IMG/VR virus record: IMGVR_UViG_2671181019_000012
Coordinates: 1 to 20,910 of that record
Source: a virus
Taxonomy: Duplodnaviria > Heunggongvirae > Uroviricota > Caudoviricetes
Direction: 5' to 3' (one strand)
DNA: 20,910 nucleotides
Made by a program: the position numbers and the translations under genes. Below the pieces are notes generated by a model. The model made no database searches, was not told the DNA's origin, and saw nothing but the letters and a program-made list of their open reading frames with translations. This document shows positions 156 to 8,125 of this stretch, one piece after another (within the stretch, counting starts at the first letter, position 1; each line of letters begins with the position of its first letter).

Positions 156-533
156 TTATTTTGAACAATCAGCATCCATCTCCAATCGGAGATCCAACAC
201 CATCAGCATACCCTCCACTACGCCCTCAGCTTTCTGGAGCATCCTGCCAACCCAACAATCAGATCGCCCATGCTTACGTGCAAGCGCCATAAAAGTCATG
301 CCGCCGACATAATAGTCCACCAATAAATCATGCAAATCGCTGTTGTTCTTTTTCAGACGGGCCATGCACCCGCAAATGATCATCGCGTCATCGTCACAAC
401 ATTGCGGGCGAGATTTTACTTTTGAAGGAATTAATCCCTTAAAACCGGCGGCAATGGACGACCAGGTCACATCTTCATGATTATTAGCCGCCCACGCTCC
501 CCAACGCTCAAGAACCATCTGAATATCACGCAT
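156..533 (-). CDS. Late-gene antitermination protein Q (small Q family, resembles DLP12 QuuD from memory)
   Basis: ORF 156..548; first ATG at 533 preceded by GGAG; translation [20 protein letters not shown]... with a CCDDD...CGC cysteine cluster; followed by terminator at 29-55. Confidence 0.7.
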
Positions 534-755
534 CAACTTACTCCACAAAAATCAGACCAGAACGCCAATTACAAGCAAAAATCAATAAAACAGTATTAGT
601 TGATTGTTATCTCTGACTTCATACTCCTGCTCCTGTCAGGGTTTTGGCGTAATTCCTCAGTATTCGGTAATCGGTCAAAACAGAACTGGGGAAACGATAT
701 AAGCGCAGGCGCATCCAGCGGTGGCGAAGAAGTTCTGCCATATTAAACTCAAACA

Positions 756-863: not shown

Positions 864-979
864 ATGCCCTCCATAGTAACCTCGAATAAAAAATACAATA
901 TGTACTTTCCAAATACAAGCAAAAATACACATTGTGCATGGATGGTTCCAGTACAGAGCGTAATAATAAGGACATGAAA
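864..979. promoter_or_regulatory. Divergent immunity promoter/operator region (pRM/pR-like) between cro remnant and cI
   Basis: Intergenic between divergent HTH genes; repeated AAATACA[AC] motifs at 891-898, 911-918, 923-930; same motif recurs at 3155-3162. Confidence 0.4.
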
Positions 980-1633
980 ATGAAATGGTATGAACTGGCT
1001 AGATCCAGAATGAAAGAGCTCGGCATAACTCAAGAGAAGTTAGCCGAAGAGCTAGGTATGACGCAGGGTGGGATTGGACACTGGTTGCGCGGATCTCGTC
1101 ATCCATCTCTTAGTGATATTGGTGTGGTGTTTAAATACCTTGGTATTGATAACATATCATTCAACCACGACGGGACATTTTCACCTGTTGGCGAATACTC
1201 ATCGGCCCCAGTTAAAAAACAATATGAGTACCCTGTATTTTCTCATGTTCAGGCTGGGATGTTCTCTCCAGAACTCAGAACCTTTACCAAAGGCGATGCG
1301 GAGAGATTGGTAAGCACAACCAAAAAAGCCAGTGACTCTGCATTCTGGCTTGAGGTTGAAGGTAACTCAATGACCGCACCAACAGGTTCCAAACCCAGTT
1401 TTCCTGACGGGATGTTAATTCTGGTTGACCCTGAGCAAGCTGTTGAGCCCGGCGATTTCTGCATAGCCAGACTTGGTGGTGATGAATTTACCTTCAAGAA
1501 ACTGATCAGGGATAGCGGTCAGGTGTTTCTACAGCCACTAAACCCACAATACCCAATGATCCCATGCAATGAGAGTTGTTCCGTTGTGGGGAAAGTTATC
1601 GCTAGTCAGTGGCCTGAAGAGACGTTTGGGTGA
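980..1633 (+). CDS. cI: CI-type prophage repressor (XRE HTH N-domain + LexA/S24 autocleavage C-domain)
   Basis: C-terminal ~130 aa match lambda CI as I recall it ([29 protein letters not shown]...GNSM...FKKL...PEETFG); N-terminal HTH differs from lambda. Start 980 (AAGGA 968-972) or 974. Confidence 0.9.
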
Positions 1634-1679
1634 CAAGAAGCACAGGTATTAACAATAACTTTCATGGTGATACGAATCA

Positions 1680-2222
1680 GTGGCTAAAAAAGGCGACTTT
1701 AAGCCTACCCAGAAAGAGGTTGACCAAGCTATTACTCGCTTGAAAAAAGTAACTTTTAGCGGAGTTACATGGACCGGAAGTGAGGGACGAACCCCAATCT
1801 GGTTTAAATTGGATCTCAAAGCTTTTGATGAAATTGGCAACCCAATCACAGGCATAAGATTTATGCTTCACTGGCGTCCTCCTATCGTTGAAGGGGTGGA
1901 TATAGTGAAGATTTCATTTGTGATGTTTCTTCATGACAGGCGCATTTACGCGCTTGATCCGTACCCTGCGGATAACAAGCCACACCGTAATAAATCTATA
2001 GTGAACCATCCAGATTTTGTTGAGGTGGCTCGAGGTCCTCACTATCACATGTACTTCGAATCAGCTGGGGAAGAAATTGCACTTAAGCTTGAAACGAACA
2101 TCAAGCCAGATGATTTTTTTGGCTACTGGAATTATTTTTGCGAGGCGCTTAATATCATATATGAAGGCAGCCCACCTTTACCTAATCAAGATAAATCAGG
2201 TCAGTTATCATGGGAAATGTAA
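1680..2222 (+). CDS. Hypothetical protein, first gene of rex-position cassette
   Basis: 180-codon ORF with GTG start, 46 nt after cI stop, same strand; overlaps next ORF by 13 nt; no motif I recognise. Confidence 0.55.
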   Translation: MAKKGDFKPTQKEVDQAITRLKKVTFSGVTWTGSEGRTPIWFKLDLKAFDEIGNPITGIRFMLHWRPPIVEGVDIVKISFVMFLHDRRIYALDPYPADNKPHRNKSIVNHPDFVEVARGPHYHMYFESAGEEIALKLETNIKPDDFFGYWNYFCEALNIIYEGSPPLPNQDKSGQLSWEM

Positions 2223-2986
2223 CGTGTTCAACAGTCATATCTAAGCTCGGGTTTGAATGCCACCCAATGAGCGACACGTTGCTGCGCGTTATTAGTCCAT
2301 TCACATACTACGATGATTGTGAGCAGATAAGTGTATTCGTTCAAGAGATGAGTGGTCAGTATAGGGTTACAGACTACTGCGATACATTGATGAATATTGA
2401 ATCACGCGGCATCCACCTGACTAAAAAGAAAATTGATCTGATCAGGTCATCACTCGCTTCGCAAGGAATTTCATTAAATGACTCTGGAGAGATATCTGCG
2501 TGGGCAGATGAGTCGTCCGTTGGACAGGTAACTGCAAATGTTATTCGTGGTGGGATTCTTGCATCCGCCCAAACTGCTGATTGGTATGCTGAGGTCAAAG
2601 ACGATAAGTTCGAAAAATGTGTAATCAGTTACTTAAAATCAGCAGGGCTTGGGAAGCGACTAGTCTTAAAGGAAAAAGTGAAAGGTATTAGTGGGCATAA
2701 CATTACTGTTCCGTTAACGCTAAGGAATGAGTCTCGACTAATACCACCAAAACGCGGGTTTACGGTAAGCCTTGCCAGCAGTAAGGGATGGAATACTGCC
2801 CACTCAACAGTTGGGAAGATTATTGACTTAAGTCAGGTCGTTCCTGACATAAACAATAGATTTGTAATAGTTGACAGCGATGGGTTAACACCTGAGCTAC
2901 AGCAACTATCATTACTATTTAATGATACCGCACGAGTGTTGCCATTCCATACCAGAGACTCTTGGATTGAGTCTCTGGTAGCCTAG
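2210..2986 (+). CDS. Hypothetical protein, second gene of rex-position cassette
   Basis: 258-codon ORF overlapping the previous stop; followed by intrinsic terminator; no motif I recognise. Confidence 0.6.
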   Translation: MGNVTCSTVISKLGFECHPMSDTLLRVISPFTYYDDCEQISVFVQEMSGQYRVTDYCDTLMNIESRGIHLTKKKIDLIRSSLASQGISLNDSGEISAWADESSVGQVTANVIRGGILASAQTADWYAEVKDDKFEKCVISYLKSAGLGKRLVLKEKVKGISGHNITVPLTLRNESRLIPPKRGFTVSLASSKGWNTAHSTVGKIIDLSQVVPDINNRFVIVDSDGLTPELQQLSLLFNDTARVLPFHTRDSWIESLVA

Positions 2987-2991
2987 AAAAA

Positions 2992-3017
2992 CCCGGCCTC
3001 AGCGCCGGGTTTTCTTT
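2992..3017 (+). terminator. Intrinsic terminator closing the cI-cassette operon
   Basis: Stem CCCGGC (2992-2997) / GCCGGG (3004-3009), then TTTTCTTT. Confidence 0.6.
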
Positions 3018-3145
3018 GCCTCACCCCCCACCTAAAGACACATAACCAAATGTATTTATTGAAAAATAAATAGATACAACTCACTAAACCACGCAATTCT
3101 GATCTCTCCTTACATCGCCGAGGCGATACACCCACGCTAAAAAAC

Positions 3146-3231
3146 AACACTATTAAATACAAAGTGTTATAAAAAATCACCCCATTTTAGAACAAATCGT
3201 ATTTATCCAATAGAGTACATATCGTACTATT
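3146..3231. promoter_or_regulatory. Candidate OL/pL operator-promoter region
   Basis: Inverted repeats AACACT (3146-3151) n11 AGTGTT (3163-3168) containing AAATACAA, and GTAC-atatc-GTAC (3215-3227); lies between cassette terminator and N. Confidence 0.3.
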
Positions 3232-3276
3232 TAACCGTCAGCAGGACGCTGGAAGCCAAACGGAACAGACTGGCAG

Positions 3277-3304: not shown

Positions 3305-3420
3305 TACGTGGCTGAAAAGCCAGATCACCCAACCACATGAGCTGTGGGATGCAATGCCGAAGCAACCGTCTCAGGAGGAGCTTCGAGATTGCATCACCAA
3401 AGTTTATTCGGGAGGAATCT

Positions 3421-3693
3421 ATGTCCAGAAAAACAGAATTTAAAGGCACCTCAGCTTCTCGTCGTAGAGCTCGTCGCGCAAACCTGCAAAGTCAGGAGGC
3501 GATTAGCTCCGACAAGCTACACAGACCAACCCCCTCTCGAGTGGTCTTGCAATGCAAGCGCAAACCAGCAATGAGAGCAGAAGTAATAACACTGACAACG
3601 TTGACCAGAAAATATGAAGGCTCAACTTGTCTTCCAAATGTAGCTCTTTACGCGGCAGGCTACAGGAAATCAAAACAACTGACAGCAAGGTGA
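3421..3693 (+). CDS. N: N-type transcription antiterminator
   Basis: ATG 3421 after GGGAGG; arginine-rich motif SASRRRARRANLQ; C-terminus LPNVALYAAGYRKSKQLTAR closely resembles P22 gp24/N C-terminus as I recall it. Confidence 0.7.
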   Translation: MSRKTEFKGTSASRRRARRANLQSQEAISSDKLHRPTPSRVVLQCKRKPAMRAEVITLTTLTRKYEGSTCLPNVALYAAGYRKSKQLTAR

Positions 3694-5119: not shown

Positions 5120-5677
5120 ATGACTGATTTCACCGGAAGCAATACTCCTGCCGAACATCGCGACAGCTGGCGCACACCACCAGAGATTTTTACTGCGCTT
5201 AATGCAGAGTTCGTTTTTCAACTTGATGCTGCCGCCAGCGAAAAAAACCGACTATGTCGGCTTTTTATCTCACAGGAGCAGAACACATTAACCACTTCAT
5301 GGCCTGAAGCAATGGGATATGCCTCTGGTTATGTCTGGTTGAATCCACCATACAGCAATATTTCCCCTTTTGTGAAAAAGGCAGCCACTGAAAACAAATT
5401 CAGTAGTGTGGGATGTGTAATGTTATTGCCTGCTGACACATCTGTCGGATGGTTTCATGAAGCGATACAAACCGCCAGTGAGGTCAGATTCATCACGGCA
5501 GGACGACTGGCATTTATTAACCCACTCACTGAGAAACCCGTCAGTGGAAATAATAAAGGCTCGATGCTCATTATCTGGCACCCATACCCCCGTACACACT
5601 GCCACTTTACGACCGTTGATCGTGGAGAGTTGATGGCGTTCGGCTCAAGGATTCTTGCCCGTCGGGAGGCTGCATGA
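5120..5677 (+). CDS. Phage-type DNA N6-adenine methyltransferase (orphan)
   Basis: NPPY catalytic motif (WLNPPYSN); size and context typical of phage Dam-family methyltransferases. Confidence 0.85.
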   Translation: MTDFTGSNTPAEHRDSWRTPPEIFTALNAEFVFQLDAAASEKNRLCRLFISQEQNTLTTSWPEAMGYASGYVWLNPPYSNISPFVKKAATENKFSSVGCVMLLPADTSVGWFHEAIQTASEVRFITAGRLAFINPLTEKPVSGNNKGSMLIIWHPYPRTHCHFTTVDRGELMAFGSRILARREAA

Positions 5678-6612: not shown

Positions 6613-6934
6613 GGCCTGTCAGTTTCTCAAGATATCCAGACCTACCGCTACCAACTGGATACGAACAGGCCGCCTACAGGCAACACGCAAAGACCCCACT
6701 AAACTAAAATCTCCTTACCTCACAACACGACAAGCCTGCATTGCGGCGCTTCAGTCTCCGCTGCATACTGTCCAGGTGAGCGCGGGTGATGGCATAACAG
6801 AGGAAAGAAAATGTCACTCTTCCGCAGAGGTGAAATATGGTACGCCAGTTTCACATTGCCGAACGGTAAAAGATTTAAACAGTCTCTTGGAACAAAGGAC
6901 AAAAGGCAGGCGACAGAACTCCATGACAAGCTAA
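6584..6934 (+). CDS. xis: Excisionase (AlpA/Xis-type HTH)
   Basis: [31 protein letters not shown] directly upstream of and overlapping int; ATG 6584 after GAGG. True 3' end uncertain. Confidence 0.55.
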
Positions 6935-7974
6935 AGGCTGAAGCATGGCGGGTCAGCAAACTTGGTGAAATACCTGATATAACGTTCGAGGAAGCGTGTG
7001 TCAGGTGGCTTGAAGAGAAAGCACATAAAAAATCACTGGACGATGACAAAAGCCGGATCGGATTCTGGCTTCAACATTTCGCAGGAATGCAACTAAGAGA
7101 CATTACTGAATCAAAAATTTATTCAGCAATGCAGAAAATGACGAACCGGCGTAATGAGGAAAACTGGAAACTCAGGGCAGAAGCATGCAGAAAAAAAGGG
7201 AAACCTGTTCCAGAATACAAGCCAAAACCAGCGTCTGTTGCAACGAAGGCTACGCATCTTTCATTTATAAAAGCCCTACTAAGAGCCGCAGAGCGTGAAT
7301 GGAAAATGCTGGATAAGGCACCAATTATTAAAGTGCCTCAACCAAAGAATAAACGGATCCGCTGGCTGGAGCCCCATGAAGCACAAAGGCTGATTGATGA
7401 ATGTCCGGAGCCATTAAAGTCTGTTGTTGAATTTGCACTGGCAACAGGCTTAAGACGCTCGAACATCATCAACCTTGAATGGCAACAAATAGATATGCAG
7501 CGCCGGGTGGCATGGATAAACCCGGAAGAGAGTAAATCAAACCGCGCAATCGGCGTTGCGCTGAATGATACTGCATGTCGCGTATTGAAAAAACAAATCG
7601 GGAATCATCACCGTTGGGTATTTGTGTACAAGGAAAGCTGTACCAAACCAGACGGAACGAAAGCGCCAACAGTAAGGAAGATGCGGTATGACGCAAACAC
7701 AGCCTGGAAAGCGGCGCTGAGACGGGCTGGTATTGATGATTTCAGATTTCACGACTTGAGACACACCTGGGCAAGTTGGCTGGTTCAAGCCGGAGTCCCG
7801 TTGTCAGTGTTACAGGAAATGGGAGGCTGGGAGTCTATCGAAATGGTTCGTCGATATGCTCACCTTGCACCTAATCACCTTACCGAACACGCACGGCAAA
7901 TAGACTCGATCCTGAACCCATCGGTCCCAAATTTGTCCCAGTCAAAAAATAAGGAAGGTACTAATGATGTGTAA
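6811..7974 (+). CDS. int: Tyrosine integrase (lambda family; resembles DLP12 IntD from memory)
   Basis: 387 aa; catalytic-region signatures ([16 protein letters not shown]); adjacent to tRNA att core. Confidence 0.9.
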
Positions 7975-8037: not shown

Positions 8038-8125
8038 TAAATTGATCTTGTAAAATCAATACCTATCGAATTTAAATGGATTTTTTGCCACAATATTGCC
8101 ACAGTTCGTTAGGAATCAGACAGAA

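Follow-up and report, generated by a model that had tools for sequence, protein, structure and literature searches.

What is encoded by the two overlapping genes that follow the repressor gene in this lambdoid prophage, and do they form an anti-phage system? The window analyzed here is the whole stretch of 20,910 nucleotides from a Caudoviricetes virus (IMG/VR record IMGVR_UViG_2671181019_000012), for which the original prediction had proposed an unknown two-gene cassette in the rexAB position, closed by a terminator and a strong positional candidate for defense. The cI-type repressor gene is located at 974..1633 on the plus strand (Pfam Peptidase_S24, 1.3e-28; HTH_3, 2.1e-10); the mechanical ORF extends from a TTG at 932 to 1633, and the ATG at 974 is the probable start. 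Its DNA is 96-98% identical to the cI of phages 2B8 and E212 and of Stx-converting phages, and it is presumed to be the first gene of the P_RM operon. ORF1 (1680..2222, GTG start, 180 aa) and ORF2 (2210..2986, ATG start, 258 aa) follow on the same strand and overlap by 13 nt, as had been described. The 46-nt gap between cI and ORF1, in which a terminator scan found none, contains the left edge of the cassette and the ORF1 leader (1641..1679, plus strand) with a Shine-Dalgarno-like GGTGA at 1666-1670. Another Shine-Dalgarno-like sequence (GGA/GAG/AGG) is present 9-13 nt upstream of the ORF2 start in every allele.

The sequences at 887..906 and 3214..3233 pair as an inverted repeat (I2, 85% complementary), and by likeness to the lambda map they probably represent the OR-side and OL-side operators. 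Because these operator-like repeats flank the segment, the cassette would lie inside the OR-OL immunity region. Past the cassette, the P_L operon begins with antiterminator N (3421..3693, plus strand; Pfam N_peptide, 7.6e-32). A 16-nt inverted repeat at 3348-3395 (88% complementary, 16-nt spacer) lies in the leader of N, shortly before its start, and in position resembles the lambda N-leader hairpin that is processed by RNase III.

At the right edge of the cassette, an intrinsic terminator homologous to lambda t_imm (2990..3020, plus strand) begins 4 nt past the ORF2 stop. Its stem (2992-2997/3004-3009, CCCGGC/GCCGGG) is followed by UUUUCUUU, and neither the stem nor the U-tract varies among lambda, 2B8, an Stx2a phage, PhiR57_1 and the window. 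The terminator region matches the end of lambda rexB/t_imm at 86% over lambda 35767-35831, and its two-hairpin fold has a free energy of -41.2 kcal/mol (z = -7.4); a simple consensus terminator scan overlooked it. Among the enterobacterial loci, nearly all carry a rho-independent terminator 3' of ORF2, even where the sequence has diverged. Both the closing terminator and the rexAB position were thus correctly predicted, the slot and the t_imm terminator being the same as in lambda. Just 5' of t_imm, the last 12 codons of ORF2 contain a perfect 12-bp hairpin with a 7-nt loop (2950..2980, plus strand). It is specific to the E. coli allele, shows one mismatch in one other locus (L024) and is missing from alleles of 88-91% identity, so it is probably incidental rather than functional. 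Its reading as a self-immunity element like the aba of BstA was rejected because it is not kept in other alleles.

Both ORFs are genuine genes, because they evolve with low dN/dS (0.015-0.1 against alleles of 66-91% identity, at which synonymous sites are saturated) and match PHROG families (ORF1, 7e-74; ORF2, 3e-119). Full-length homologues of each were found throughout Enterobacterales. On the minus strand of the ORF1-ORF2 interval no ORF exceeds 74 aa. Rfam gave no match on the cassette interval, and its sole return was sub-threshold and outside the cassette. At 27-70 on the minus strand of the window, a similarity to Betaproteobacteria_toxic_sRNA (28.6 bits against a gathering threshold of 50, E = 0.01) is probably due to chance. 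Consensus promoter sites were no more frequent than in shuffled sequence, a result that speaks neither for nor against an internal P_LIT-like promoter.

According to PMC8585504, which cites Degnan et al. 2007, the cI-N interval is a mosaic hotspot in which RexAB and BstA are found, and the promoter that drives it is among the most active in a lysogen. The survey of cI-N cargo suggested with the prediction was performed. In phages that carry other cargo between a cI and an N of 94-98% DNA identity, homology to the window ends at 1640 (at 1631 in Stx2a_WGPS8) and resumes at 2990, the terminator being common to them. From these breakpoints, the exchangeable unit consists of the two genes and their leader. 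In place of the pair, 2B8 and E212 encode an NYN protein and Stx-converting phages a hypothetical protein of 173 aa. PhiR57_1 and many IMG/VR contigs have identical cI and N with an allele of the pair that is only 41% and 51% identical. In this PhiR57_1-type allele, homology returns within codons 1-15 of ORF1 and among the last 45 of ORF2. Conversely, the allele of the window (ORF1 at least 96%, ORF2 99% identical) follows cI alleles that are 100%, about 70% or 24% identical or undetectable by BLAST, and nine of ten further distinct upstream genes encode HTH and/or S24 repressors. The cassette swaps as a unit behind many repressor alleles. Prophages of Providencia and Izhakiella have a DUF3024 gene of 113 aa inserted between repressor and pair (L004 4052-4393, L005 4053-4394, L008 4044-4385). 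It matches the PADLOC candidate PDC-S43 (5.7e-37), and the slot therefore stacks two candidate defense cargoes in these prophages.

These exchanges bear on the possibility that the pair serves the phage life cycle itself, through induction control, counter-defense or as a homing-type selfish nuclease cassette among lambdoid genomes. The pair is dispensable, since it is absent from phages with the same cI and N, and it presumably belongs to the lysogen-expressed operon rather than to an early or late lytic one. Moreover, free-standing homing nucleases are usually single genes, and most distant relatives of the pair were found outside prophages. We give a life-cycle role only a slim chance.

The two genes were never found apart. 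Using ORF2 as bait in GTDB genomes and IMG/VR, an ORF1 homologue was identified directly upstream of ORF2 in all 87 enterobacterial loci. One of these is disrupted (L057 2588-3896, IMG/VR), with ORF1 cut to 114 aa, ORF2 cut to 221 aa and a gap between them, which could be an insertion or an assembly artefact. Seven distinct, distant ORF1 relatives (21-30% identity) were seen at nine places, in metagenomes and in chromosomes of beta- and gammaproteobacteria. Downstream of each of them is a gene of about 250 aa, in most cases with a 4-nt overlap. Six of these seven partners are annotated as DUF1828, some weakly, and the partner in L101 has no recorded Pfam match. ORF1 and ORF2 are therefore an inseparable, autonomous two-gene module.

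The only PADLOC models matched by the pair belong to one candidate system, PDC-M24. ORF1 matched PDC-M24A (E = 4e-4, 58 of 146 positions), and ORF2 matched PDC-M24B (E about 7e-7, about 90-100 of 255 positions, N-terminal half only). Among relatives, ORF1 homologues likewise matched only PDC-M24A models and 24 of 24 ORF2 homologues matched PDC-M24B, with best values of 4e-6 and 8e-10, respectively. Because the matches are weak and cover about 35-40% of each model, the pair was not filed as a PDC-M24 member. It seems instead to be a divergent, prophage-borne and remote branch of the DUF6978/DUF1828 pairs represented by PDC-M24. The description of the cassette as unknown thus needs to be narrowed: its proteins belong to named DUF and PHROG families and resemble PDC-M24 weakly, and what stands is that the function of these families is uncharacterized. 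The searchable literature contained no functional study for DUF1828, DUF6978, PDC-M24, the RefSeq accessions or the PHROG identifiers, no experimental test of PDC-M24 and no reported phenotype or activity of the pair.

ORF1 encodes a soluble protein of 180 aa (pI 6.3). It matched Pfam DUF6978 over residues 98-159 only (23.6 bits, E = 7e-5), below the gathering threshold of 29.6, and DUF6978 was matched by 7 of 18 ORF1 relatives at E <= 0.01 (best 2e-6). Judged from sequence similarity, ORF1 is a sister group of DUF6978 rather than a member. A HMMER scan of 1.84 billion representative proteins gave 22 clusters at E <= 0.001, and a profile search gave 160 proteins, all of about 150-195 aa. W31, R88, D93, N104, H121, H123, F153 and P168 are invariant in the family, and H102 and G119 are nearly so (at least 90%). 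The resulting D ... HxN ... GxHxH cluster looks like a metal or catalytic site, but none of the known motifs is a convincing match for it. The histidines were also considered as HNH/His-Me, HIT, cupin or calcineurin-like motifs; these ideas were dropped, as neither spacing nor conservation fits. The idea that the conserved C-terminal tail is a docking peptide was dropped as well; conservation of this tail is confounded because it overlaps the Shine-Dalgarno region of ORF2.

The ORF2 product is a soluble protein of 258 aa, whose residues 30-112 matched Pfam DUF1828 above the gathering threshold (40.9 bits against 22, E = 2.6e-10). With this domain and the sub-threshold DUF6978 match of ORF1, the earlier statement that the proteins carry no recognizable motif does not hold. 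NCBIfam gave no match for either protein, and a sequence search of the PDB with four profiles returned nothing or artefacts (a designed Kelch repeat protein, His-tags). The predicted model of ORF2 (pLDDT 81) consists of two halves. The N-terminal half (about residues 1-120), which includes DUF1828, is predicted to adopt a fold like that of type III secretion chaperones and YbjN. The C-terminal half (about 130-258) is modeled as a restriction-endonuclease-like fold and agrees with the PD-(D/E)xK core, alpha-beta-beta-beta-alpha-beta. Foldseek of the whole model against the PDB gave no match at E <= 0.001; SpcU, SicP and Card1 were near the top ranks.

The active site of this putative nuclease is atypical. 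In the C-terminal half, G159-x-S161-G162-H163, D206 and R217 are invariant throughout the family, and an acidic residue is found at 222 or 223. The canonical catalytic D at the start of beta2 and the (D/E)xK of beta3, positions judged from secondary structure, are absent from ORF2: invariant H163 sits where the PD aspartate is expected, and beta3 lacks a conserved acid-x-Lys motif. Only enterobacterial members keep K181 and E135, which are lost in distant relatives. The fold is thus nuclease-like, and catalysis is putative. A Ser-His-Asp hydrolase reading of GxSGH and D206 was dropped, as Ser and His are separated by only two positions and a nucleophile-elbow motif is lacking.

Of 5426 complete E. 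coli genomes, 61 carry the cassette, O104:H4 outbreak isolates among them; there it is located in a lambdoid prophage beside intD. Enterobacterial copies are almost exclusively in the repressor-linked cargo slot. The distant pairs are mostly outside prophages, and their neighbors are TA modules or IS elements rather than classic defense islands. Three of them lie within 2 kb of HigBA-like/Gp49 genes or of PIN with MazE (VapC/MazE) on chromosomes (L095 8326-8945, L096 8530-9184, L102 9382-10052), and IS transposases adjoin two others (L100, L101), which suggests that the distant pairs are small mobile accessory islets. In a distant prophage (L098 8621-14537 and L099), the pair directly follows an HTH+S24 repressor and is followed by a PRTRC_E/Prok_Ub/Prok-E2/Prok-JAB/ThiF ubiquitin-like cassette.

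The distant pairs beside TA modules and IS elements, outside prophages, make a plain toxin-antitoxin or addiction module a live rival explanation. Such a module would stabilize the prophage or a genomic islet, or simply be selfish, and give no protection against phages. A small upstream gene overlapping a larger downstream one, by 13 nt in the window and by 4 nt in relatives, would suit a type II TA module, as would the genomic scatter of the copies, some of which stand alone among housekeeping genes; the module has also been kept in the heavily deleted prophage remnant of the window. However, no known toxin or antitoxin domain was found in ORF1 or ORF2 with Pfam, NCBIfam or PADLOC, ORF1 lacks a DNA-binding domain of the sort that type II antitoxins usually have, and the enterobacterial module is almost confined to the cargo slot. 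We consider this rival unlikely; it overlaps the defense model because many TA modules defend.

Other features of the window concern the prophage as a whole, which is a deletion remnant. Homology to intact lambdoid prophages starts at 806, and the junction 805/806 was found in no complete E. coli genome of the collection. About 19 N-terminal codons of cro remain (minus strand, 863 down to 806) and are joined to the DNA that immediately precedes Q (156-548, minus strand), from which it follows that the cII-O-P-nin region is missing. To the right of N and the Ral and Ea10-like genes are a phage Dam methyltransferase gene (5120-5677), two tyrosine integrase genes (6811-7974 and 8096-9199), a block of low GC content (about 31%, 9000-10500) and, on the minus strand, a TrbL/VirB6 conjugation gene (10616-12019). 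The neighbor of the prophage remnant on this side appears to be an integrative conjugative element.

For the pair itself, we propose a TA-like, abortive-infection-type anti-phage module, expressed in lysogens and with ORF2 as effector, a reading to which we give about an even chance. As the anatomy and the lambda paradigm suggest, lysogens would transcribe ORF1 and ORF2 together with cI, from P_RM to t_imm, and the 13-nt overlap would couple translation of ORF2 to that of ORF1. The N-terminal domain of ORF2 may bind a protein or peptide and thereby gate the C-terminal domain, a putative nuclease. ORF1 would be the partner that senses infection or restrains ORF2, probably through physical interaction. 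This model is supported by the hallmarks of conflict systems, by the fold class, which is that of known defense effectors, and by the PADLOC link. The atypical active site of ORF2 and the location of distant pairs outside classic defense islands argue against it, as does the mixed validation record of PDC candidates (4 of 8 and 0 of 2). The positional argument made in the original prediction is fully borne out, with the rexAB slot and t_imm confirmed, and the defense role is what we infer.

A more specific version of this anti-phage model, with a new mechanism, can be formulated from the family-wide residues. The chaperone-like domain of ORF2, fused to a non-canonical endonuclease-fold domain (S161/H163/D206/R217), would capture a phage protein or peptide, and the histidine-rich ORF1 would be an enzyme acting as co-effector or gatekeeper. 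Although quite unlikely in our judgment, this mechanism would bring a sensing logic and a catalytic site undescribed for validated anti-phage systems, and about 1% of complete E. coli genomes would have it in their prophages.

The same protein features can be set against a role in lysogenic conversion, in which the pair would alter host physiology (stress response, biofilm, virulence or regulation) and not phage sensitivity. The coupling of two genes, the nuclease-like fold and the rapid exchange of the cassette are more typical of conflict systems, and the pair also occurs in environmental beta- and gammaproteobacteria without a link to pathogenesis. We regard this role as improbable.

Were the anti-phage reading correct, it would provide the first function for DUF1828, DUF6978 and the PADLOC candidate PDC-M24. 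Given its presence in 61 of 5426 E. coli genomes including O104:H4, a defensive cassette could affect phage typing, phage therapy and prophage competition. Since two alleles (41% and 51% identical) coexist next to identical cI and N genes, specificity can be studied as a natural experiment, and the fusion of a chaperone-like domain to an atypical endonuclease fold is an architecture without a characterized mechanism. If it is not defensive, the cassette is one more conserved hypothetical pair or TA module in a known hotspot. Two-gene modules with a nuclease-fold protein that lysogens express as exclusion cargo of the cI-N slot are a well-known kind; what appears new is an uncharacterized family remotely tied to an unvalidated candidate. 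Until a phenotype or unusual chemistry is known, this would not surprise a specialist.

Comparison with known systems places the pair as follows. It shares with PDC-M24 the two-gene organization, the correspondence of ORF1 to A and of ORF2 to B, and similar protein sizes (models of 146-148 and 255-256 positions); it differs from this unvalidated candidate in that the matches are weak and partial and the C-terminal half of ORF2 is unmatched. Can2/Card1, NucC and Cdn1 combine a sensor domain with a PD-(D/E)xK effector. In ORF2, however, the predicted N-terminal domain is like type III secretion chaperones and YbjN, not CARF or SAVED, a cyclic-nucleotide synthase is absent near the pair, and the canonical catalytic residues are lacking. 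In TAC systems (bioRxiv 10.1101/2024.02.24.581848), a SecB-like chaperone recognizes the tail of the antitoxin, and protection against phage is among the things these systems can provide. The link between a chaperone-fold module and a TA-like pair would be common to both and offers an analogy for a chaperone-like domain acting as sensor, whereas the predicted fold in ORF2 is fused to a putative effector and is not SecB-like.

Lambda RexAB is the closest system in position, sharing the slot between cI and t_imm, the strand, presumed co-transcription from P_RM, the terminator and the nature of a two-gene lysogen cargo. The pair could accordingly be read as a highly diverged RexA/RexB that causes membrane depolarization, for which identical position and terminator are the only points in favor. 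The original prediction had seen no resemblance to RexA or RexB and had listed remote homology among its checks, and the comparison agreed: hhalign gave a probability of 0.2% and E of about 0.3 for each pairing of the alignments (ORF1 with RexA, ORF2 with RexB, ORF2 with RexA). The size order is reversed, with RexA of 279 aa preceding RexB of 144 aa in lambda, while ORF1 of 180 aa precedes ORF2 of 258 aa here. Unlike RexB, whose maximal 19-residue Kyte-Doolittle value is 2.39, neither protein has a hydrophobic segment (ORF1 1.22, ORF2 0.79; no window above 1.6), and a RexB-type ion channel mechanism is impossible because the pair includes no membrane protein. At the level of sequence and predicted topology, diverged RexA/RexB, an outcome that the original prediction had named as its own refutation, is refuted, and we assign it a negligible probability.

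The remaining comparison is with BstA of the Salmonella prophage BTP1, which is encoded directly 3' of the prophage repressor in diverse Gram-negative prophages, is closed by a terminator of its own and protects through abortive infection (PMC8585504). That system consists of one protein and a cognate anti-BstA DNA element, whereas the cassette has two genes; PADLOC detected no BstA match in the pair, and no conserved self-immunity element was found. What the two share is the position directly downstream of a prophage repressor, closed by a terminator, and if the pair is defensive, a validated family would join RexAB and BstA in the cI-N slot of lambdoid prophages.
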